From sequence record OK018184: DNA of 64,000 nt; one strand, written 5' to 3'. This document shows, one piece after another, positions 4,759 to 62,197 of this stretch. Numbering within the stretch: position 1 is the stretch's first letter; each line of letters opens with the position of its first letter. The notes under the pieces are model-generated. The model saw nothing but the letters and a program-made list of their open reading frames with translations, had not been told where the DNA came from and did not search any database. This DNA is from Shigella phage CT01. Both the position numbers and the translations under genes were made by a program.

Positions 4759-5183
4759 TGCTTCTGATCCCTGAAACTCATGAATTAGTTCTCGAGAATG
4801 TCGAAGCACTTATTCCTGAAGCACAGGGTCGCTTTGACGAATTGTCTTCTGCTTTAAATAAAGACGATATAAATACAATTGTCGAGAATATGCTTGATGA
4901 TGAAACTGATTTAGCAGTTGCATTAGCTTCTATTAATGAAAATATGCCGTTAAATGAATTCATCGTTAAACATGTTTCTGCCCGTGGTGAAATTACTCGC
5001 ACTAAAGATCGCAAAACCCGCGAACGAAATGCATTTCAAACCACCGGGCTGTCTAAAGCAAAACGTAGACAAATTGCTCGTAAAGCTACCAAAACGAAGA
5101 TTGCCAATCCAGCAGGTCAATCTCGTGCTCAGCGTAAGCGTAAAAAAGCTCTTAAACGCCGTAAAGCATTAGGATTAAGCTAA
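4758..5183 (+). CDS. 68: Prohead core protein gp68
   Basis: 141 aa; synteny; overlapping stop/start with 67 and 21. Confidence 0.85.
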
Positions 5184-5821
5184 TGAATGAACCCCAATTA
5201 CTAATTGAAACTTGGGGTCAACCTGGCGAAATTATTGATGGCGTGCCAATGCTTGAATCTCACGATGGAAAAGACTTAGGTTTAAAACCGGGTTTATACA
5301 TTGAAGGAATATTCATGCAAGCGGAAGTCGTCAATAGAAATAAACGTCTTTATCCAAAACGCATATTAGAAAAAGCGGTAAAAGACTATATTAATGAGCA
5401 AGTTTTAACTAAACAAGCTCTCGGAGAATTAAATCATCCTCCACGCGCTAATGTTGACCCGATGCAAGCCGCTATCATTATAGAAGATATGTGGTGGAAA
5501 GGAAATGACGTATACGGACGAGCTCGTGTTATTGAAGGTGACCATGGTCCTGGAGATAAATTAGCAGCTAATATTCGTGCCGGATGGATTCCAGGAGTTT
5601 CTTCTCGTGGATTAGGTTCATTGACTGACACAAATAAAGGTTATCGTATCGTAAACGAAGGATTCAAATTAACTGTAGGTGTTGATGCAGTATGGGGTCC
5701 AAGTGCTCCAGATGCATGGGTAACTCCTAAGGAAATTACCGAATCACAGACGGCGGAAGCCGATACAAGTGCCGATGACGCCTATATGGCTCTCGCAGAG
5801 GCCATGAAAAAAGCGTTATAA
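5183..5821 (+). CDS. 21: Prohead core protease gp21
   Basis: 212 aa, T4 gp21 length; synteny. Confidence 0.9.
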   Translation: MNEPQLLIETWGQPGEIIDGVPMLESHDGKDLGLKPGLYIEGIFMQAEVVNRNKRLYPKRILEKAVKDYINEQVLTKQALGELNHPPRANVDPMQAAIIIEDMWWKGNDVYGRARVIEGDHGPGDKLAANIRAGWIPGVSSRGLGSLTDTNKGYRIVNEGFKLTVGVDAVWGPSAPDAWVTPKEITESQTAEADTSADDAYMALAEAMKKAL

Positions 5822-29644: not shown

Positions 29645-30576
29645 TAGAATGCTCCTTGAAAAATATTATCACCACTAGTAGGTCTATTATACAAATACTC
29701 TATGCCACCAGGTTTAATATAGTTCCATGTCTGAAACGGATGTGTCTGATATGGATGATATAGATGATTATTAGGTCTATTATACAAATACTCTATGCCA
29801 CCAGGTTTAATATAGTTCCATGTCTGAAACGGATGTGTCTGATATGGATGATATAGATGATTATAAGGATTTAATCCAGGCGTTCTCCAGGTAGTGTTCC
29901 AAGGAAAAGAATCGTTTTTAACCATCTTCTCAATTAAATCTTTTATAGCTTTTTCACTATCAAAACTTTCTTTATTTTCCTTCGGCGAAAAAAGCTTATT
30001 TTCTACATCATTCCATGTATAAACTCGCTGCGCAGTTTTTGGAATATTGTCACGCTCTCCTCGAGCCATCCAATAAACAGGAACATTTAATATTTCACTC
30101 GCATGATCGCAGTGATGAGCGAGATCGTCAATATAACAAATTACGTTATATTTCTCTTTTGCCTTTTTGAACAGCTCTTCTTTTGAAGAATCATGACCAC
30201 ACATCATTACTTCCGAGAAAGCACCAGGAAAAAGAGCATTCAAATTAAATTGACGATTCAACAGAGCGTCAATAGAATCACCCAATGCTGTAACAGCTAC
30301 AAAATTATAATCTTCTTTTAATTTGTTAATTACACACAGGGCATCTTTATACGGAGACAAGTAACGAATAAAATCTGAACGATTGTATTTTTCAATTAAC
30401 TTGACGCCAAGTTCTTCGTCACAATTAAAGAGTTTACCCGGAGAAATAAATTTCTCATCTTGGATCATTTTTAAAATATGTTCTAATGGAAGATTATATT
30501 TCTGAGCAAAATAAGGAAGGCCTGATTGCCAGCTTAAACATACTCCATCAATATCAGTTAAAATAGTTGGCTTCAT
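29644..30576 (-). CDS. HAD-superfamily hydrolase-like protein (T4 30.2 position) with internal 31-aa tandem duplication
   Basis: 310 aa; N-terminal ILTDIDGV resembles HAD motif I; 93-bp perfect tandem repeat near C-terminus. Confidence 0.65.
   Translation of the reverse strand: MKPTILTDIDGVCLSWQSGLPYFAQKYNLPLEHILKMIQDEKFISPGKLFNCDEELGVKLIEKYNRSDFIRYLSPYKDALCVINKLKEDYNFVAVTALGDSIDALLNRQFNLNALFPGAFSEVMMCGHDSSKEELFKKAKEKYNVICYIDDLAHHCDHASEILNVPVYWMARGERDNIPKTAQRVYTWNDVENKLFSPKENKESFDSEKAIKDLIEKMVKNDSFPWNTTWRTPGLNPYNHLYHPYQTHPFQTWNYIKPGGIEYLYNRPNNHLYHPYQTHPFQTWNYIKPGGIEYLYNRPTSGDNIFQGAF
29679..29864. repeat. 93-bp perfect tandem duplication (2 copies) inside 30.2 ORF
   Basis: 29679-29771 is identical to 29772-29864; in frame, duplicates 31 codons. 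Confidence 0.9.
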
Positions 30577-32805: not shown

Positions 32806-33022
32806 TATAAATTCTCTTTTAAATGAAAATGCAGGACTTATTGGCATTGCCTGCGCAAGCCCTCAAGGGGAACATAGGTTTTTGAATATTTAACGACCAG
32901 GATAACCATAAACCCGTCATCATACCTTATAGCTCTTATCTGTTGTACACCGTTAGCTTAAAGGTTCCGGGTTCGATTTCTCGAGGATAAGATATATACT
33001 AAGGCAGTGAATCTCCAATAAA

Positions 33023-41027: not shown

Positions 41028-42179
41028 TTAAAAGTATTTTTTAAAACTCATCATAACTTTATCATCAACATCATTATCAATCTGTGCAACAAGGTAAGAT
41101 GACAGTTCTACTTCTTGTGGCGCGGATTGAACATTATCAGAATTAAGGTATTCACGAATCCAAGGATATGGATGTTTAACCGGAGCATCGGTAATTGGGC
41201 ATGGAAGACCGCACTGTTTCATACGAGATACAGTTAAGTAATCAATAAAGCTCCACATGCTATTTGTATTTAATCCAGGAACATCGCCATCTTTAAATAA
41301 ATGAACTGCCCAATCTTTTTCTTGGCGGTTAACTTCCATGAAAATATTAACTGCTTCTTGTTCACACTCTTGAGCAATTTTAACCCATTCGCCGCCATCA
41401 GTACCGGATTGAAGTTGACGAATAATATATTGGGTGCCTTTAAGGTGAAGCTGCTCATCACGTGCAATGAACTTCATAATCTTGGCATTACCTTCCATGA
41501 TTTCCATGTTCTTATGGAAGTTAAAGGTACATGCAAAAGATACATAAAAACGAATAGCTTCTAAGGCATTAATAACGTGCAAACAGAGGTAAAGAGATTT
41601 CATTAGTGCTCGTTTAGCTTCGGCTTCTTGTTTAATAGCTCGATTTAAACGAAAAACAGCATCAGGAGATTCTTTAGCTAGTTCTGTAAATTCTTTAGCA
41701 TTTTCCCATTCACGGGTTTTAGTCAGAACATCATCATAATAGCGACCGATAGATTCAGCACGTTTCATGATAGCTTCATCTAGTACAATCTCATCAAATA
41801 CCTTCGATGGATCAGTATAAAGATTTCGCATGATATGGGTATATGAACGGCTATGAATAGTTTCACTAAAAGTCCATGTAGCAACCCATGTATCAAGACT
41901 TGGGTCTGAAATTAATGACATAAGTACTGCAGACGGTGCACGACCCTGAATGCTATCTAGAAGTGATTGATACTTCAGGTTGTTAGTAAAAATATCTTGC
42001 TGATACTGAGGAAGCTTGTTAAATTGTGCAGCATCCATCATTAAGTTTACTTCTTCAGGACGCCAGAAAAATGACAACTGCTTTTCGGTTAAATCTTCAA
42101 AAACTTTATGACGTTGAATATCATAACGCGCAATACCAAGACCTGAACCGAAGAACATAGGTTCTTTTAAAACATTCAA
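41028..42179 (-). CDS. nrdB: Ribonucleotide reductase small subunit NrdB (no intron; start codon uncertain)
   Basis: 383 aa ORF continuous with class Ia R2 sequence; track start is a TTG preceded by an in-frame stop; first ATG is at MFFGSG. Confidence 0.85.
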   Translation of the reverse strand: MNVLKEPMFFGSGLGIARYDIQRHKVFEDLTEKQLSFFWRPEEVNLMMDAAQFNKLPQYQQDIFTNNLKYQSLLDSIQGRAPSAVLMSLISDPSLDTWVATWTFSETIHSRSYTHIMRNLYTDPSKVFDEIVLDEAIMKRAESIGRYYDDVLTKTREWENAKEFTELAKESPDAVFRLNRAIKQEAEAKRALMKSLYLCLHVINALEAIRFYVSFACTFNFHKNMEIMEGNAKIMKFIARDEQLHLKGTQYIIRQLQSGTDGGEWVKIAQECEQEAVNIFMEVNRQEKDWAVHLFKDGDVPGLNTNSMWSFIDYLTVSRMKQCGLPCPITDAPVKHPYPWIREYLNSDNVQSAPQEVELSSYLVAQIDNDVDDKVMMSFKKYF

Positions 42180-42309
42180 CTAAATTTTCCTTATCATCAG
42201 AACCTCCCATACATCTAGGGATTATATGATGTGTCTCTTTATATTCTGATAAAGATTCCCGAGCCTGAGCTCGGGAAATTAGGTCATTATAGATTTTTTG
42301 ATAATTCAT
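42121..42309 (-). pseudogene. Truncated HNH homing-endonuclease remnant (mobE-like position between nrdA and nrdB)
   Basis: 62 aa ORF starting 7 nt after nrdA stop; contains HNH-like HHIIPRCMGGSDDKENLV, then runs out of frame into nrdB. Confidence 0.55.
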
Positions 42310-43091
42310 TACAATTTACACGCTGCGCAATCATCGGCTTTTGGAGTTTCTATTTCGTAATCATCAGTACCGGAACCATCACGAGTATTATGATAATAGA
42401 AGTTTTTAATGCCATAATACCATCCGTATAGCATGTCATCAATCATTACAGACATTGGAACCTTTCCTTTTGGAAAAATCTGCGGGTCATAATATGTATT
42501 CGCTGAAGCTGATTGACATACCCATTTCAGCATAATAGCTACCTGCGTAAGATAAGGTTTATTGCCTTTCTTAGCTAATTTCCACGTATAATCATAGAGG
42601 TCTATGTTATGCTCAATATTGGGCACGACTTGATTAAAGGAACCCTCTTTTGATTCTTTAACAGAGACTGGTCCACGTGGAGGCTCGATACCGTTTGTAC
42701 TGTTAGAAACTTGGGAAGATGACTCACATGGCATAAGTGCTGATAATGTGCTATTACGGATGCCAAAGAGCTTAAGGTCTTCCCGCAGCGACGACCAGTC
42801 ACAAACGTATTTTGGAGCTGCGATTTGGTCAATCTTTTTATTGTACCAGTCGATAGGTAATTCGCCTCGAGACCAACGAGTGTCTGAATAATATTCGCAA
42901 GGTCCTTTTTCTTTGGCGAGCTTAATGGATGCTTTAATGAGCCCATACTGTAATCTCTCAAATAGTTCATGTGTTAAATCGTTAGCATCTTCATAAGAAG
43001 CAAAGTTACTTGCCAGCCAAGCTGCATAGTTCGTAACACCAACACCGAGATTACGACGCTTTTTAGCTTTTAAAGCTTCTGGAACCGGATA

Positions 43092-43239
43092 ATCTTGATA
43101 GTCTAACAGGTTATCAAGTGCACGTACTTGAACTTCTGCTAATTCATTAATTTTATCTTGGTCTTGCCAATCGAAGTTATCCAACACAAATGCAGATAAC
43201 GTGCACAATCCAATTTCAGCATCAGGACTATTCACATCA
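43092..43239. repeat. 148-bp direct repeat, left copy (nrdA codons for DVNSPDAEIG...LLDYQD)
   Basis: Identical to 44099-44246. Confidence 0.9.
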
Positions 43240-44098
43240 GTTCGACGCGTTGTTCTTGAAGACGGATCACATACTTGGACTGCTAAACAAGATTTTAATG
43301 GCGCAGTTAACTTTAACTCTACTGTTAACCTTAATAACACTACCACATTTAAAACAGAAGTTAAATTCCGCTCGTTGAATGCATTCCGTATGTATGGCGG
43401 AAAATTTGGTACATTTTTACGTAATGATGGAGAGAGTCTTTATATTCTTTCCACCGACGAAGATGATCAAGATGGAAACTTTAATACAAATAGACCTTTC
43501 CGTTATGAATTAAGAACTGGTGATGTTACTTTGGGTGGTGTTAGTGGTGCTAACGTTTTAAAATTAAAACGTGATTCTCTCACCGCATTTTTTGGCGGTG
43601 ATATTAACATGAAAGGCACGATGACTTTTGACGCCGGACGTTTAGGGTCACGAGATTATTTTAAATTTAACCATTGGGGTGATAGCAATAACGCTCGTGA
43701 TAACATCATCCAGTTAGAAGATAGTCAAGGCGCTCATTTTTCCACTGAACGTACTTTAGCGACTGGTGCAATTAAAACTCGTTTCTTTGGCGAAACATTC
43801 ACTGATGGTACATTATACCTAAATCAGATGAATAATAGCTCTGAACGATTCCATATCAATAATTGGGGAAATTCAGAAGTTGGTCGCGCGGCAGTGATGG
43901 AAGTCGGTGATTCCAAAGGTTATCACTTCTATACGGAACGCAGGACAGATAACAGTTTGACATTTGATGTTGCTGGCACTTTTACCGTGCATGGACCTAC
44001 CGGGATCACTATCAAAAACTCTGTTGGTGCTCGCCACATCTGGTTTAAAGATGATAGCGATGCAGAAAAGGCTGACAGTTTAATTACCTTCCGCAGTG
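43240..44098 (+). other. Insertion within nrdA: 835-bp fragment of tail fibre gene 37 (sense on + strand) plus 24-bp filler of unknown origin
   Basis: 43240-44074 matches gene 37 at 60946-61436 except that it also contains the 344 bp absent there; 44075-44098 matches neither locus. Confidence 0.85.
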
Positions 44099-44246
44099 AT
44101 CTTGATAGTCTAACAGGTTATCAAGTGCACGTACTTGAACTTCTGCTAATTCATTAATTTTATCTTGGTCTTGCCAATCGAAGTTATCCAACACAAATGC
44201 AGATAACGTGCACAATCCAATTTCAGCATCAGGACTATTCACATCA
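44099..44246. repeat. 148-bp direct repeat, right copy
   Basis: Identical to 43092-43239. Confidence 0.9.
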
Positions 44247-45570
44247 TTTGTTGGAATAGCAATTTCACAACACAAGTTACTCTGGCGAATAGGCGCCTTT
44301 TCACGAATAAACGGAGTATAGTTATTCGTATTATCAATGAACTGCACATAAATCCTTGCTGTTCCTGATCGTTCAGTCATGAGTAATTCAAATAGTTCAC
44401 GGGCTTTAATACGCTTTTTGCGAATATTAGGGTCTTTTTCTGCTGCTTCGTATAATTCGCAGAAACGGTCTTGGTCTTTAAAATAAGAATAATAAAGCTC
44501 ACCACCCATTTCATGCGGACTGAACAAAGTAATGTAATCGTTCTTTCCAAAACGTTCCATCATCAAATCATTCAACTGGACGCCATAATCCATATGACGG
44601 ATACGGTTTTCTTCTACACCTTTGTTATTTTTCAAAACGAGAAGATTTTCAACTTCCAAATGCCAAATAGGATAATAAGCAGTAGCAGCGCCGCCACGAA
44701 TTCCGCCCTGTGAACATGATTTAACAGCAGTCTGAAAATGTTTCCAAAAAGGAATAACACCAGTATGGCGTACTTCACCTGTGCCAATCTTAGAACCTTC
44801 GGCACGAATCATACCAACGTTAATACCGATTCCAGCTCGTTTTGAAATATACTCAACAATTGAAGCAGAAGCCTTATTGATAGACTTCAGCGAATCGCCT
44901 GCCTCAATAACAACGCATGAACTAAATTGCCGAGTCGGAGTACGACATCCAGCCATAATAGGAGTAGGCAGTGAAATCTGTCGAGTAGATACTGCTTCAT
45001 AAAAACGAATAACATGTTTTAATCTATCAACAGGTTCATCTTGATGTAATGCCATTCCAATAGTCATAAATGCAAACTGAGGAGTTTCATAAATTTGACC
45101 AGTGGTTTTATCTTTAACGAGATATTTTTCTTTTAATTGCATCGCCCCGGAATAAGTAAATTCCATATCCCGCTCATGCTTAATTTTTGATTCTAAAAAT
45201 GTAATTTCTTCTGCTGAATATTTTGACAACAATTCAGGGTCGTATTTACCTTCATTTACACAGTAAGAAATATGGTCAATAAATGAACGTGGTTCATATT
45301 GCCCGTAAACATGCTTACGAAGAGCAAACATTAAACACCGTGCAGCTACGTATTGATAATCAGGCTCTTCAACTGAAATAGAATTCGCAGCAGCCTTAAT
45401 TACAATGGTTTGAATGTCATCAGTGGTCATTCCATCACGGAGATATGATTTAATATTTTCATATAATTCATAAGGATCTACAGATGTTCCTTCAGCTGCC
45501 CAAGATAAAACTTTAATAATTTTTTGCGGGTCAAAGCTTTGAGAAACACCACTACTTTTGATAACATTAA

Positions 45571-45897
45571 TTAATTGCATAAGTCCTCAACTTGAAAATC
45601 GTCTTTAAACAATCGGTTAACTATATGAGCTATTATATCACCATGACACGGCTTTGGTTTACATGTGCATCCTAGCCTCATTCCACGTAAAGGCTCTAAA
45701 TGTGCTTTAGTTATTTCTCCGGATTTAATTCGACGTATAAAATCTTTTTTGAATAATTCAATGGCAGCCTCCCGGCTGCCAGCATCTTTACCGACGTAAT
45801 TTCCCCAAAATGTACCACGGTGAATATTAACATCAAAGTCGGATTTATATTTATTCACTACTTGGCATAGACGGCCCGCGCGGTGATAATTTGTCAT
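45571..45897 (-). CDS. Hypothetical protein upstream of nrdA
   Basis: 108 aa ORF; [11 protein letters not shown] cysteine motif. Confidence 0.55.
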
Positions 45898-46137: not shown

Positions 46138-46998
46138 TTACACCGCCATTTTTCCTTTAATAGGAGGGTGAGATACATAGTTGTTAAGAACAAAATTATG
46201 CGGCTTTGCGAATTGACTCAACCAAAATACCTGTGATTCTGTGTCCCATTCATCAAATTCATCTGGAAATTTTAATTGTAATTCGCATAAATCCATAGGT
46301 TCACGACGCAAAATTTCTTTACATTGTTCTACGTGATTCATATAGATATGAGTATTACCACCAGAAAATATCAAATCTCCTGGAATAAGATTACACATCT
46401 TAGCTACAATATGAACTAATGCAGCATATGATGCAATGTTGAATGGCAAGCCCAAGAACACGTCAACACTTCTTTGATACCACTGCAAATCCAAATAGCC
46501 ATTACGCACATTAAACTGATAGAACATATGACAAGGCGGTAATGCCATTTGCTTGAGTTCAGCTGGATTCCATGCTGAAACAATTTGACGTCTATCATTT
46601 GGCAGTTTTTTAATACGATCAACAACTTCTATAATTTGGTCTACACCGCCAAAATCACGCCATTGTTTTCCATAAATTGGACCAAGTTCACCGCTATGAT
46701 ATCCTAAATCTTTTGCTTGATTTTCGTAATTTTCATCCCAGACTGTTTTGCCTTGAATTAATGAATCATGCTGAATTAATCGTAAATCATTTACGTTAGT
46801 ACTTCCTGATAAAAACCATATTAGCTCAGCAATGCAAGCTTTCCAGGCGAGCTTCTTAGTTGTTACTGCAGGAAAACCTTTACTTAAATCCCAGCGTAAT
46901 TTAGTACCGAACAGAGCAATTGTTCCTGTGCCTGTTCGGTCATCAGTTTCATAGCCATTTTCAAAAATGTCTTTAATTAAATCTTGGTATTGTTTCAT
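46138..46998 (-). CDS. td: Thymidylate synthase (uninterrupted, no group I intron)
   Basis: 286 aa continuous ORF with ThyA motifs (LPPCH, active-site Cys); T4 Td is 286 aa but is intron-split in T4. Confidence 0.93.
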   Translation of the reverse strand: MKQYQDLIKDIFENGYETDDRTGTGTIALFGTKLRWDLSKGFPAVTTKKLAWKACIAELIWFLSGSTNVNDLRLIQHDSLIQGKTVWDENYENQAKDLGYHSGELGPIYGKQWRDFGGVDQIIEVVDRIKKLPNDRRQIVSAWNPAELKQMALPPCHMFYQFNVRNGYLDLQWYQRSVDVFLGLPFNIASYAALVHIVAKMCNLIPGDLIFSGGNTHIYMNHVEQCKEILRREPMDLCELQLKFPDEFDEWDTESQVFWLSQFAKPHNFVLNNYVSHPPIKGKMAV

Positions 46999-47411: not shown

Positions 47412-48238
<827 letters not shown>

Positions 48239-48246
48239 ATTATCTC

Positions 48247-48582
48247 CTAATATAAAGGATCGGGAACATATCCACTAGCTTTAATCATTTTGATTAATGT
48301 TAACATTCCTTTATTAACTGCTCGTGAGATTTCATCAAAAACTTCATCACTAAAAAGTTCTAACACGCCCTTCTGAACTTTTAATTTACACCCAATAATT
48401 TCGTCATCGCCTATAGTAAATTCGTTTCCGCCAATTCCACCGAAAAACTTAATTGCACCAGTCAACTGTCTTCCACGAGAATATGGGTCGTGTGATAAAG
48501 TAATATGAGTCACCCCAGGTACAGTTTTAAATTGACAGCGGATGTTTACTTGGGCAATTCCAGTTACGTGAATGTCAGACAT
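48247..48582 (-). CDS. Hypothetical protein (frd.x region)
   Basis: 111 aa ORF. Confidence 0.55.
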   Translation of the reverse strand: MSDIHVTGIAQVNIRCQFKTVPGVTHITLSHDPYSRGRQLTGAIKFFGGIGGNEFTIGDDEIIGCKLKVQKGVLELFSDEVFDEISRAVNKGMLTLIKMIKASGYVPDPLY

Positions 48583-48606
48583 AATATTTTCCTCAAACAG
48601 ACTTTT

Positions 48607-49834: not shown

Positions 49835-50743
49835 TTAAAGGTCATTCAAAAGGTCATCCAGATCCGTGTCATCAGCACTAGATGAACTGCCAGAGCTTGA
49901 GCTCATAAAATCATCTTCAGTTTTTGTTTTGAAGTCATCAACATTGAATGCATCCAAATCATCAGCAACTTTATCAGCTTTCTTAGCGGCAGTTGCTGCG
50001 GCACCGCCCATAGCAGCAGTTCCCATAACTTGACTGAACTTAGTGCTCAGTTCTTCAAACGATTTGAATTTATCTTTAGAAGTCATTTCAGAAAGGTCAA
50101 CCATTTGTTCGAACAGTTCTTTCTGGAAAGATTCATCATCAATGTTTGGAATCGCAGATTGATTCAGGAATTTAGATTCATCGTAGTTACTAAAACCAGA
50201 AACTTGTTTAACTTTCAGTACAAAGTTAGCACCTTCCCACGGACAAGTTACATCAACCGGAGTTTCACCCATTTCAACATCAACTGCAATCATTGCATTG
50301 ATTTTATCCCAGATTTTCTTACCAAAACGGTATTTAAATACTTTACCTTCATTTTCTGGAGCAGCTGGGTCTTTTACTACAAGAATGTTAGCCCAGTAAG
50401 AAGTTTTACGTTTAACAAGACCGTACTCTTTATTGTCAGTGTTATACAAATCATTTTTACTGATGTACTGACATACTGGACAAGAATCGTAATCACCGTG
50501 GGTAGATGAACAGTTTTCAATATACCATTTACCATTTTTCTTGAAACCGTGATTTACAAGAATTGCGAATGGTGCTTGTTCATCATTTTTAGACGGAAGA
50601 AAACGAATTACTGCTTGACCGTTACCCGCATTATCGAGTTTCAGTTTCCACTCGCCTTTATCTTCAGAAGAAAAACTACCTTTATTTCCAGCCAGTTTAG
50701 CCATTTGTGCAGCGAGTTCAGCAGTAGATTTACGTTTAAACAT
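49835..50743 (-). CDS. 32: Single-stranded DNA-binding protein gp32
   Basis: 302 aa; matches recalled T4 gp32 ([17 protein letters not shown]..., C-terminal acidic serine-rich tail). Confidence 0.95.
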
Positions 50744-50990
50744 TTTTATTTCCTTTTTAATTTAATTAACAGTTGGTGCTATGACGATGTATGACCTCAT
50801 AGCTGGTCAGTGAGATAATTATAATCTATTTATAATAAGCAATTAATACTTACAAGATTTCACAGTTTCAATGAAAACACTTTTGGCTTTCTGTGAATCA
50901 ATATTTAAAATTTTTCTATAAGCCTTTAACTTTATAGAATAATTATTCCAGACTAAATTATCAGTCTGTTCATCATGTTTATCAATTATA
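50453..50990. repeat. 538-bp direct repeat, copy 1 (gene 32 first 97 codons + gene 32 leader + last 49 codons of gene 59)
   Basis: Identical to 51054-51591. Confidence 0.9.
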
Positions 50991-51344
50991 ATTCGAACTG
51001 ATCTGTGTTTGTGCATTTGGGCATATGTTTGCGCGCGTAAAGCAGGCTGGTCGATTTTTACTGATGTACTGACATACTGGACAAGAATCGTAATCACCGT
51101 GGGTAGATGAACAGTTTTCAATATACCATTTACCATTTTTCTTGAAACCGTGATTTACAAGAATTGCGAATGGTGCTTGTTCATCATTTTTAGACGGAAG
51201 AAAACGAATTACTGCTTGACCGTTACCCGCATTATCGAGTTTCAGTTTCCACTCGCCTTTATCTTCAGAAGAAAAACTACCTTTATTTCCAGCCAGTTTA
51301 GCCATTTGTGCAGCGAGTTCAGCAGTAGATTTACGTTTAAACAT
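50982..51344 (-). pseudogene. Truncated duplicate of gene 32 5' end (97 gp32 codons fused to 23 junction codons)
   Basis: 120 aa ORF identical to gp32 through ...VCQYISKN, then diverges in the 63-bp filler; carries a second copy of the gene 32 leader. Confidence 0.75.
50991..51053. other. 63-bp junction filler of unknown origin between the two repeat copies
   Basis: Does not match flanking phage sequence; higher GC than its surroundings. Confidence 0.7.
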
Positions 51345-51591
51345 TTTTATTTCCTTTTTAATTTAATTAACAGTTGGTGCTATGACGATGTATGACCTCA
51401 TAGCTGGTCAGTGAGATAATTATAATCTATTTATAATAAGCAATTAATACTTACAAGATTTCACAGTTTCAATGAAAACACTTTTGGCTTTCTGTGAATC
51501 AATATTTAAAATTTTTCTATAAGCCTTTAACTTTATAGAATAATTATTCCAGACTAAATTATCAGTCTGTTCATCATGTTTATCAATTATA
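51054..51591. repeat. 538-bp direct repeat, copy 2
   Basis: Identical to 50453-50990. Confidence 0.9.
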
Positions 51592-52097
51592 TTTAAAAAC
51601 GAATCAAGCAAGATAAACGTCTCAAACGAAATTATATTCGATTGAAGTAGTTTAAAAATATAACTTGATTGAACTTTTGGATTATACTCAAAGATTTCTT
51701 TAAAAGCAGAAACTTCAACTTTTTTACTAAAATAGTAAATATTGCGAATATCTTCTTCAAACTTAAATTTAATTTGCTTTAAGCGTCCGATATATTCACG
51801 ATAAAACACAAGTGCATCAGCGTCAGAGATGTCACCAATCCAAGCATCTTGGTTAGCAACAAGATTGCTTATAAAGATTAAAGCAAGTTCCTTTAATTTA
51901 TATTTTTCTGATAACTTCTGGAAAAAATACTTATCCCTTCGCTTTTGATAAGCGGCATCAGACACCCGCATGCACCAATTATACTTAATTACATCATACT
52001 TTCCATTCATATGTTGTTTTATCATTAAGTATAATTTATAAACTGATTTACCATCAATATATCTTTCACCACCAGCAGGCATGCGGAGTTTAATCAT
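51444..52097 (-). CDS. 59: Helicase loader gp59
   Basis: 217 aa, T4 gp59 length and sequence. Confidence 0.92.
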   Translation of the reverse strand: MIKLRMPAGGERYIDGKSVYKLYLMIKQHMNGKYDVIKYNWCMRVSDAAYQKRRDKYFFQKLSEKYKLKELALIFISNLVANQDAWIGDISDADALVFYREYIGRLKQIKFKFEEDIRNIYYFSKKVEVSAFKEIFEYNPKVQSSYIFKLLQSNIISFETFILLDSFLNIIDKHDEQTDNLVWNNYSIKLKAYRKILNIDSQKAKSVFIETVKSCKY

Positions 52098-59466: not shown

Positions 59467-62197
59467 ATGGCTACTTTAAAACAAATACAATTTAAAAGAA
59501 GCAAAACCGCAGGTCAACTTCCTGCTGCTTCAGTATTAGCCGAAGGTGAATTGGCTATTAATTTAAAAGATAAAACAATTTTCACAAAAGATGACTCAGG
59601 CAATGTTATAGAATTAGGTTTAAAATATGGAGGAACAATTGATGGTTCTTTAACTGTTAATGGAAATATAATTGGAAATTTAACAGGTAACGCTGCAACT
59701 GCAACGAAATTAAAAACAGCACGAAAAATTAATGGTATATCCTTTGATGGGTCAAAAGATATCACGCTAACTCCATCCGACATAAATGTCAATAGCACAA
59801 CGTTTATAAAAAATAACGGCGAATTACCTGTTGATGCTAATTTAGATACGTATGGGCCTGTTGAAGAATATCTTGGAGTTTGGTCGAAAGCAACTTCAAC
59901 CAACGCTCAACCAGCAAATAAATTTCCAGAAAACAATGCTGTAGGTGTGCTAGAAGTATTTGTGGCCGGTCAATTTGCTGGTACTCAGAGATATACAACT
60001 AGATACGGAAATGTTTATATTCGTTCCTTGACTGCTACATGGAACGGAGTAAATGGTCCGTGGAGTGTGTGGCGAAATATTCAATCCGGTACTCGTTCAC
60101 TGTCAACAACAATTGATCTTAATGATCTAGGAGGTGCTGAACATCTTGGTTTGTGGCGAAATAGTTCAAATTCCATTGCTACCTTTGACAGAAATTTCCC
60201 AGAAGAGGGGTCGTCAGCTCAAGGTCTTTTGGAAGTATATGAAGGTGGAAACTATTCTCGTACACAAAGATATACAACCAGATTTGGTGTTGTTTATACT
60301 CGCTGTCTTACTGCTGCGTGGGATGCTTCTGCGCCTAAATGGGGACCGTGGCAACAAGTCGGTAATGTCACACCGGCGACTTTCTATGACGGAAACCTGA
60401 ATGATTTTAAAACTCCTGGGTTATATAATATTTTAGGCACTGATGCCGTTATTAATTGTCCTACAGGCGAAGGTTTACCAGCCGTTATTGTTGGTTTGCT
60501 GGAAGTTAAACAGCGTGCTTCTGGCGGTGCTATTTTCCAAAAATTTACTACTGCCGGAACAGGTGCAACTACCCGCGATCGTATTTTTGAGCGCGCATAT
60601 ACCGGCGGTGTGTGGGGTGAATGGAACGAAGTATACACATCTTATTCTCTACCAATTACTTTGGGTATGGGCGGTATTAAATCTAACTTAGCAGAGTTAG
60701 ACTGGCAAGCATTTGATTTTGTTCCTGGTAGTATGTTTAGCGTTCCTTTGAACAAAATAAAGAACATGCCAGCTAATATGGATTGGGGTACGATTGACGG
60801 AAACTTAATTATGTTTTCTGTTGGTCCTAGCGAGCACACCAGCACAGGACGTACTGTTCAGGTTTGGCGTGGAACTGTATCCCAGACAAACTATCGTTAT
60901 TTTGTCGTTCGTGTATTCGGTAATCCAGGGAGTAGAACATGTACAGTTCGACGCGTTGTTCTTGAAGACGGATCACATACTTGGACTGCTAAACAAGATT
61001 TTAATGGCGCAGTTAACTTTAACTCTACTGTTAACCTTAATAACACTACCACATTTAAAACAGAAGTTAAATTCCGCTCGTTGAATGCAAGGCGCTCATT
61101 TTTCCACTGAACGTACTTTAGCGACTGGTGCAATTAAAACTCGTTTCTTTGGCGAAACATTCACTGATGGTACATTATACCTAAATCAGATGAATAATAG
61201 CTCTGAACGATTCCATATCAATAATTGGGGAAATTCAGAAGTTGGTCGCGCGGCAGTGATGGAAGTCGGTGATTCCAAAGGTTATCACTTCTATACGGAA
61301 CGCAGGACAGATAACAGTTTGACATTTGATGTTGCTGGCACTTTTACCGTGCATGGACCTACCGGGATCACTATCAAAAACTCTGTTGGTGCTCGCCACA
61401 TCTGGTTTAAAGATGATAGCGATGCAGAAAAGGCTGTTATCTGGGCTACAGATGAGGGTATTTTACATATTCGCAATAATCATGAGGGTTCATTTAGTCA
61501 TCACTTCCAGGGTGCAATGATTAAACTGGAAGGGCGTGTTCCTTATGGTGCAGCAAAAGGGCTTATTCGAGGCGAGATAGACGGTGGTGCATATGTTGCA
61601 TGGAGAGACCGCCCTGCTGGTTTGTTGGTTGACTGCCAGAAAAGTATTGACAGTGCTCATGCTGTTTGGAAAGCGGTTGATTGGGGGCGTCAATATATCG
61701 CTGCTATGGACGTTCATTGTCCGGGTGATGGTAATAATACTGCGGCAGCGGTTCTTCATGTTCAGGCTGCTGATTATCAATTCCATGCAAGCGGAGAATT
61801 TCATGCCACTGGTAACGGGAACTTTAACGATGTGTATATTCGTTCCGATGGTCGTCTGAAAATTAATGTTGAAGATTATACAGGAAATGCGTTAAGTTTG
61901 ATCGGCAAACTGAAAGTGAAAACTTACGATAAAGTTAAATCTCTTAAAGACCGTGAAATTATCGGTCACGAGATCGGCATTATCGCACAGGATTTACAAG
62001 AAATATTACCGGAAGCTGTAAAATCTTCAAAGGTTGGCAATCTTGATAATCCAGACGATGTTCTGACAATTTCTAACTCTGCTGTGAATGCTCTTTTAAT
62101 TAAGGCTATTCAGGAAATGAGTAAAGAAATTAAAGAATTGAAAACTCCTTTCTTTACTAAAATTGCTCGCAAAATTAGTAAATATTTTAAATTCTAA
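59467..62197 (+). pseudogene. 37: Long tail fibre distal subunit gp37, frameshifted by a 344-bp internal deletion
   Basis: Split into ORFs 59467-61110 and 61085-62197; the missing 344 bp (junction at 61089/61090) is present in the copy inside nrdA; C-terminus has a chaperone-like domain. Confidence 0.85.

Follow-up and report, generated by a model that had tools for sequence, protein, structure and literature searches.

A 62-codon open reading frame between nrdA and nrdB of a Tequatrovirus-like genome is very probably a dead mobE stump, left by a 628-nt deletion that also took the nrdB start

Between nrdA and nrdB in the sequence record of Shigella phage CT01 (OK018184) lies a short open reading frame that encodes part of an HNH motif and then runs into nrdB, a gene whose own start is ambiguous here. 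Hence, this locus raises the question of what the short ORF derives from, where nrdB begins, and whether the arrangement belongs to a living phage. We analysed it within the window, the whole stretch of 64,000 nucleotides, which is a distinct Tequatrovirus-like genome with at most 98.5% identity to any record over 24 kb. With high confidence we regard the ORF as a dead remnant of the 5' part of a mobE gene of the RB3/SF2-1 type, produced by a single 628-bp deletion in which the start signals of nrdB were lost as well.

The landmarks of the locus and of the neighbouring nrdA gene are collected in Table 1. The translation of the 62-codon ORF in the program-made ORF list is MNYQKIYNDLISRAQARESLSEYKETHHIIPRCMGGSDDKENLVECFKRTYVLRFRSWYCAL, and it includes the HNH-type stretch THHIIPRCMGGSDDKENLV. 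The Pfam HNH profile (PF01844) matches the peptide with 22.8 bits (E=1e-4), marginally above the gathering score of 21.4 bits, and the match is partial, covering profile positions 10-34 of 47. Together with the BLASTP match to T4 MobE described below, this bears out the original prediction of a 62-codon ORF with an HNH-type motif. That prediction had placed the ORF start 7 nt past the nrdA stop; instead the ATG overlaps the TAA by one base, forming TAATG at 42311-42307. The same nrdA/mobE layout is found in SF2-1, RB3 and T4, so the ORF occupies the position of MobE. About 29 nt past the mobE ATG the stump carries a hairpin with a 9-bp stem, a 4-nt loop and a T-rich tail. In T4, a hairpin 27 nt past the mobE AUG, with a 9-nt stem and a 4-nt loop, terminates 30-50% of transcripts (Wilson and Edgell, 2009; PMC2790892). 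The hairpin in the window corresponds to this weak internal terminator proven in T4 (PMC2790892) and has been kept in the remnant.

Table 1. Positions of the features at the nrdB-mobE-nrdA locus in the window
Feature	Position	Strand	Remarks
5'-truncated nrdB	41028..42179	minus	longest ORF 383 codons from TTG; without intron
First ATG in nrdB frame (MFFGSG)	42158-42156	minus	
TTG in nrdB frame	42179-42177	minus	first possible start
TAG in nrdB frame	42182-42180	minus	immediately 5' of TTG
AAGGA	42192-42188	minus	8 nt before TTG
Deletion junction	42181-42173	minus	AGTTGAAT (42181-42174) from mobE side; nrdB-side copy in SF2-1 is AGTTGAT
62-codon ORF	42121-42309	minus	ATG 42309-42307, TGA 42123-42121
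mobE-derived part of ORF	42309 to about 42174	minus	mobE nt 1-134/136; 45 MobE residues
Remaining 17 codons of ORF	end at TGA 42123-42121	minus	nrdB sequence, wrong frame
Terminator hairpin	42277-42256	minus	TTCCCGAGC-TCAG-GCTCGGGAA, then TCTTTAT; terminator scan and fold
nrdA stop TAA	42311-42309	minus	one-base overlap with mobE ATG 42309-42307 (TAATG)
3' fragment of nrdA	42309..43242	minus	about NrdA residues 445 to 754; severed from 5' part by insertion
Barrel-domain ORF at nrdA end	42309-43346	minus	ORF list
Insertion in nrdA	43243..44098	plus	gp37 fragment plus 24 nt unassigned filler
5' fragment of nrdA	44084..45580	minus	498-codon ORF: ATP-cone, all-alpha, half of barrel domain; ends in filler

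The first 45 residues of the peptide are identical, at 45/45 positions, to the 243-aa endonuclease that SF2-1 encodes at the mobE position. T4 MobE shares 44 of these 45 residues, with 45/53 identities in BLASTP (E=1e-33), a similarity that as an alignment statistic is far beyond chance, and RB3 MobE shares 43. The annotations of related phages agree on the locus. The T4 record lists mobE (141 aa) followed by nrdB.1 (83 aa) between nrdA and nrdB, in agreement with the earlier statement that T4 carries mobE at this position; the RB3 record has a 243-aa gene annotated as mobE there, and the SF2-1 record a 732-nt "homing endonuclease" gene with a one-base overlap with each neighbour. RB3, SF2-1 and P922 all carry the intact 243-aa endonuclease, with a TAATG overlap at the nrdA stop and at the nrdB start. 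The alignments thus point to a parent allele of the RB3/SF2-1 type with 243 residues and not to the 141-aa version of T4. Of this gene only 18% remains in the window. Within the HNH motif the His-His pair and the Asn are kept, and the alignment stops after ENLV; the helix with the distal His (LTAREHFIAH) has been deleted, so the stump lacks a complete beta-beta-alpha metal motif. Likewise absent are about 190 C-terminal residues, which presumably form the DNA-binding module. By position and by sequence the locus can be assigned to the mobE lineage, and it lacks the defining traits of a MobE that works.

We searched 50,697 phage records by megablast with window positions 41900-42600 (701 nt). 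The best matches were Shigella phage SF2-1 (PQ571308.1) and P922 with 99.9% identity, and all top records align with the 701-nt query in two pieces spread over 1329 nt. Compared with SF2-1 base by base, the window shows a single clean gap of 628 nt with flanks that are otherwise identical, which, together with the 45/45 match, supports the view of the original prediction that the ORF is a deletion remnant of mobE. The gap extends from about nt 135 of mobE to about nt 30-32 of nrdB, and nrdB is kept from nt 31-33 on. On the mobE side the parental sequence reads AGTTGAAT followed by TAACAG across the breakpoint, on the nrdB side CAGTTGAT followed by GTTTT, and the joined sequence in the window reads AGTTGAATGTTTT. 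A shared AT makes the exact breakpoint ambiguous, and the joint lies inside an imperfect direct repeat of 7-8 nt, formed by AGTTGAAT and AGTTGAT. The two sequences are thus separated by one deletion whose ends lie in short, imperfect direct repeats, and a repeat at the joint is a hallmark of illegitimate recombination of the slipped-strand or microhomology-mediated kind. Either replication slippage or microhomology-mediated illegitimate recombination would have joined mobE nt ~135 to nrdB nt ~31. As 628 nt do not add up to whole codons, the MobE frame enters nrdB off-frame and stops after 17 codons; the out-of-frame passage into nrdB had been foreseen. Lost with the deletion are mobE codons 46-243, the Shine-Dalgarno sequence and the ATG of nrdB, and the first 10-11 nrdB codons (MSTVFNTNPVD).

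An in-frame deletion of the HNH motif of T4 MobE abolished nicking (PMC2790892). For this reason the stump, in which the distal HNH His and the whole C-terminal region are missing, is expected to be catalytically dead. The nick of T4 MobE has been mapped to nrdB nt 122-126 (PMC2790892), a site that the window retains and that lies about 90 nt beyond the deletion. As the deletion ends at nrdB nt ~30-32 and does not span the nick, self-cleavage by MobE is ruled out as its simple cause.

What remains of nrdB has lost its beginning and little else. In SF2-1, the native ribosome-binding region that is deleted in the window reads AAAGAGGAAAAATTAATG, with the Shine-Dalgarno motif GAGG and a mobE stop that overlaps the nrdB ATG (TAATG). 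T4, SF2-1 and the Logan contig ERR14030477_29149 (L006) share the encoded N-terminus MSTVFNT(N/S)PV, and from residue 3 onwards phage NrdB aligns colinearly with E. coli R2. The 628-nt deletion took away every element of this canonical start: the Shine-Dalgarno sequence, the ATG and the stretch that encodes MSTVFNTNPV. The proposal that the deletion had taken the native nrdB start is therefore supported by the SF2-1 alignment, and no canonical start can be recovered by realignment, a result that would have spoken against it. Its description of the remaining frame also proved accurate, with a stop abutting the TTG and the first ATG at MFFGSG, except that AAGGA precedes the TTG by 8 nt and not by 9 nt. 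The rest of NrdB differs from that of SF2-1 in one residue, and this near-identity suggests that the damage is recent. Ribonuc_red_sm (PF00268) matches the window gene with E=7e-37, and alignment with E. coli R2 recovers the motifs SETIHSRSY, LEAIRFY and EGNAK...DEQLH as well as the tail SSYLV...D. The diiron ligands, the radical tyrosine and the C-terminal R1-binding tail of a class Ia beta-subunit are thus retained.

The deletion may also have consequences for transcription. In T4, mobE is promoterless and co-transcribed with nrdA (Wilson and Edgell, 2009; PMC2790892). The middle promoter of T4 nrdB is placed in the 3' part of mobE in the passage of that paper which cites Tseng et al. (1990) (PMC2790892). 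By analogy, the nrdB middle promoter would have been lost together with the 3' part of mobE, the position being proven for T4 and not for mobE of the RB3/SF2-1 type. A search for a strict MotA box plus -10 pattern gave no site in the deleted SF2-1 segment and two sites in T4; by eye, a relaxed MotA-box-like arrangement, GCTTA-12 nt-TATTAT, is seen about 70 nt upstream of SF2-1 nrdB. In the window, nrdB would sit behind a weak terminator without a promoter, Shine-Dalgarno sequence or ATG of its own. Most likely it would be silent or barely expressed, with at best little protein made from the TTG at 42179 or the ATG at 42158. The aerobic ribonucleotide reductase would then be non-functional and the phage dependent on host enzymes, also because nrdA is interrupted about 930 nt upstream.

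The interruption of nrdA is one of several rearrangements that became apparent when the whole window was compared with SF2-1 and with itself. The nrdA insertion contains a gp37 fragment of 837 nt (43238-44074) that is 100% identical to SF2-1 gp37, and it is bracketed by a direct duplication of 148-151 nt of nrdA (43092-43242 and 44099-44249), of which about 148 nt are exact. Native gene 37 has a frameshifting deletion of 344 nt at 61088/61089, which leaves two ORFs (59467-61110 and 61085-62197), and the missing 344 nt are found inside nrdA with flanks of 146 nt and 349 nt. At the boundary of gene 59 and gene 32 there is a 541-nt tandem duplication whose copies are separated by 60 nt of filler with 50% GC; the filler matches E. 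coli mdtD at 36/40 positions. A further tandem duplication of 93 nt lies at 29676-29868. All other ORFs are intact in comparison with SF2-1, and microhomology at each of the window junctions is limited to 2-8 nt. The distal long tail fibre is the product of gene 37, an essential gene. Because this gene is split, the sequence as written is unlikely to represent a viable phage.

None of the junctions has a second witness in the collections searched. An 80-nt blastn query across the mobE/nrdB junction gave only split matches among the 50,697 phage records. Exact junction patterns of 52 nt and 24 nt are absent from IMG/VR, the 24-nt pattern is absent from JGI metagenomes and GTDB genomes, and a megablast of the junction found no counterpart in E. 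coli genomes. The nrdA/gp37 junction pattern had zero matches in three collections, and the other window junctions were likewise absent from every collection searched. Searches for the exact products likewise drew a blank: neither the 62-aa ORF nor the NrdA N-fragment nor NrdB from M8 is on record. The allele therefore stands without independent confirmation, and sequence errors or a defective molecule are plausible.

Several alternatives have to be weighed against this background. That the peptide stems from another HNH endonuclease, such as I-TevIII of the nrdB intron, or represents a free-standing mini HNH gene, could be considered because I-TevIII, too, is an HNH enzyme encoded in the nrd region and starts with MNY. 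The original prediction had proposed BLASTP comparisons with both MobE and I-TevIII, and we ran them: RB3 I-TevIII gives a negligible match (10/28 identities, E=0.039), set against 45/45 residues in SF2-1 MobE and E=1e-33 for T4 MobE, and nrdB in the window has no intron and is colinear with the uninterrupted SF2-1 gene. A source other than mobE is thereby excluded for practical purposes. The fate of nrdB leaves more room for debate. A +1 ribosomal frameshift on A-AAA-AGA (Lys and Arg in the MobE frame, ~42166-42160) would yield a fusion of MobE(1-45) to NrdB; the nrdB frame is indeed +1 relative to the stump, and TTT AAA AGA would let tRNA-Lys re-pair one base downstream. However, a search for a stimulatory element found none, the local fold is unexceptional (z = -2.0), in SF2-1 TTTTAAAAGAA belongs to the ordinary, conserved coding sequence of nrdB, and T4-type phages carry their own tRNA-Arg(AGA), so that the codon need not be slow. 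Such a fusion is very improbable. Somewhat easier to imagine, and nevertheless unlikely, is that the deletion is real and nrdB still works, with read-through from the nrdA promoters, a start at TTG 42179 or ATG 42158, and activity of an R2 that lacks 9-16 N-terminal residues. The ORF is otherwise intact, with metal ligands, radical tyrosine and C-terminal tail kept; conservation between phage R2 and E. coli R2 is weak over the lost residues; the spacing of AAGGA and TTG is compatible with initiation; and the mobE terminator of T4 halts no more than 30-50% of transcripts (PMC2790892). Against this stand the loss of promoter, Shine-Dalgarno sequence and translational coupling, and the ribosomes on the mobE stump, which cross both candidate starts in another frame. 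Moreover, nrdA is split by the insertion in the same window, so that R2 would be left without its phage R1 partner. TTG starts are also rare in T4-type phages.

The most serious competing view concerns the sequence itself. The deletion might be absent from the living phage and reflect an assembly, scaffolding or chimeric-molecule artefact or a defective minority genome, with the true phage carrying intact mobE and nrdB like SF2-1 and P922. The most serious anomaly in this respect is that essential gene 37 is broken and its missing DNA lies inside nrdA; the insert there is bracketed by the exact duplication of about 148 nt and accompanied by 24 nt of filler, the 541-nt tandem duplication encloses a foreign filler of 60 nt, and the window junctions lack a second copy in the collections searched. 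On the other hand, the imperfect 8-nt repeat is too short for an assembler to collapse, and at least one DNA molecule probably carried the junction. The other ORFs are intact relative to SF2-1, which gives no indication of a generally error-ridden sequence, and nrdA, mobE and nrdB, though not gene 37, are dispensable in T4 on normal hosts. Microhomology of 2-8 nt is more in keeping with real illegitimate recombination or with chimeric molecules than with repeat collapse by an assembler. We consider an origin outside the living phage a possibility to be taken seriously, if doubtful on present evidence; going by the sequence, the deletion may belong to a viable phage or to the assembly only.

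The reading of the ORF as a mobE stump created by one deletion that also beheaded nrdB describes a kind of feature that is known, as mobE has been well described together with its position and terminator, and so has the loss of homing-endonuclease genes through deletion. By itself the finding is of little weight, an ordinary gene wreck among several suspicious rearrangements. It serves chiefly as a warning that nrdB, mobE, nrdA and gene 37 should be annotated as disrupted in this record, and that the assembly needs to be verified first. If the deletion were real, its consequences would be of more general interest. It has been proposed that mobE is protected from deletion, the nrdB promoter lying inside mobE (Wilson and Edgell, 2009; PMC2790892), and a real deletion would be a small natural counter-example to this idea. 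It would also mean a T4-like phage that lives without a functional aerobic ribonucleotide reductase of its own.

Comparison with known alleles places the stump among other decayed or divergent genes of this region. MobE of SF2-1 and RB3 shares with the window the position, the TAATG overlap, the N-terminal residues and the internal terminator hairpin, but extends over the full 243 aa, whereas the stump lacks the distal His and the C-terminal region and its frame runs into nrdB. T4 MobE has the locus, the N-terminal HNH region and the terminator ~27 nt past the AUG in common with it; in contrast to the stump it is an active enzyme in vivo, its C-terminal part is a different one, and T4 nrdB keeps its promoter, Shine-Dalgarno sequence and ATG. 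T4 I-TevIII is, according to the T4 annotation, likewise an HNH homing endonuclease of the nrd region that survives as a deletion stump. It is, however, a different, intron-encoded gene, and its deletion is harmless to the host gene. In L006, a short N-terminal MobE ORF of 66 aa begins at the nrdA stop, as in the window, but is followed by a second mobE ORF (140 aa) and an intact nrdB of 392 aa. In the ENA scaffold_412730 (L007), an N-terminal MobE ORF of 82 aa begins at the nrdA stop and is homologous to mobE up to nt 138, which is 2-4 nt from the window breakpoint; unlike the window, it continues in frame into an HU-like fragment and unrelated DNA. The DNA downstream gave no phage match, and L007 may be chimeric. 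The only IMG/VR contig with the 30-nt sequence that precedes the breakpoint continues as normal mobE. With L007 as the one other case, a breakpoint hotspot at mobE nt ~135 is unsupported, and we treat the near-match of L007 as coincidence or chimera. Quite unlikely is the reading in which the deletion is real and marks a T4-like phage that has lost the whole aerobic reductase, by an event held to be selected against, and in which L007 would hint that mobE is prone to recombination around nt ~134-138, immediately past a conserved 5' module. When the 62-aa peptide was compared with a protein database, only 9 short candidates were returned, a number that is no measure of the frequency of truncated relative to full-length forms. 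Decay of mobE as such is not unusual, as the split into mobE and nrdB.1 in T4 and the L006 contig illustrate, alongside the I-TevIII stump. What sets the deletion in the window apart is that it runs on into the host gene nrdB.

The gene for the long tail fibre distal subunit, gene 37, is essential. Compared with its counterpart in the close relative Shigella phage SF2-1 (PQ571308.1), native gene 37 of the window carries a 344-nt frameshifting deletion that leaves two ORFs of 547 and 370 codons, and the DNA absent from it is the piece that sits in nrdA. The gene 37 fragment that interrupts nrdA (837 nt, 43238-44074, plus strand) is 100% identical to SF2-1 gp37 and is followed within the insert by a 24-nt filler, ACAGTTTAATTACCTTCCGCAGTG. 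An exact direct duplication of nrdA, about 148-151 nt long, lies on both sides of the insert, and the NrdA product is split into a 498-codon N-terminal fragment and a C-terminal fragment that lacks a start. The loss from gene 37, together with the presence of its DNA inside nrdA, argues for misassembly, a defective molecule or engineering.

Two tandem duplications were found elsewhere in the window. The larger (541 nt, 50453-51594) spans the 3' end of gene 59 and the 5' end of gene 32, of which one intact copy each is still present. Between the two duplicated copies lies a 60-nt filler (50994-51053) with a GC content of 50%, compared with 36% for the genome; aligned to E. coli mdtD, it is identical at 36 of 40 positions (E=2e-5). 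The smaller duplication (93 nt, 29676-29868) is in-frame, comprises 31 codons and lies in a gene whose SF2-1 homologue, at positions 125712-126575 of that record, encodes a hypothetical protein. The duplicated unit is present once in SF2-1.

Two other differences from SF2-1 look like ordinary presence/absence polymorphisms: at about 2245-2253, adjoining the tail sheath gene, the window lacks a 644-nt segment with a 606-nt ORF, and at about 32998-33000, close to an rI-like gene, 179 nt of intergenic DNA. Megablast against SF2-1 gave no match for 46175-46295 or 47995-48588, and the surrounding blocks are just 95.7-96.9% identical to it. Both segments appear to belong to a mosaic region of small ORFs, situated between the neighbourhoods of td and frd, as is typical in T4-like genomes.

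Coordinates of the rearranged loci and of the promoter-like site in the window
Feature	Position	Strand	Details
Native gene 37	59467-62197		deletion junction 61088/61089
nrdA insertion region	43092-44249		insert proper 43243-44098; gene 37 fragment and filler
Sigma-70-like site	42286-42314	minus	TTGTAA-17-TATAAT; 10/12 consensus matches

The sigma-70-like site spans the nrdA stop and the start of mobE, upstream of the terminator hairpin. It is probably a chance consensus match, because no promoter was found immediately upstream of T4 mobE (Wilson and Edgell, 2009; PMC2790892).

Broken mobE genes also occur in two public contigs. The independent metagenomic scaffold L007 (ENA ERZ28573695 scaffold_412730, 666 nt; region 1-334) contains the nrdA 3' end and mobE nt 1-138, then switches in-frame into an HU-like fragment, 2-4 nt away from the mobE breakpoint of the window. 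A further ORF follows, and the downstream part found no match in the phage collection. L007 could be a chimera or a hint of a recombination-prone boundary in mobE. In the T4-like contig L006 (Logan ERR14030477_29149; region 5001-5641), mobE is broken into two ORFs of 66 and 140 aa, the latter with a faint NUMOD3 match, and nrdB is intact (392 aa); this is an independent case of mobE decay.
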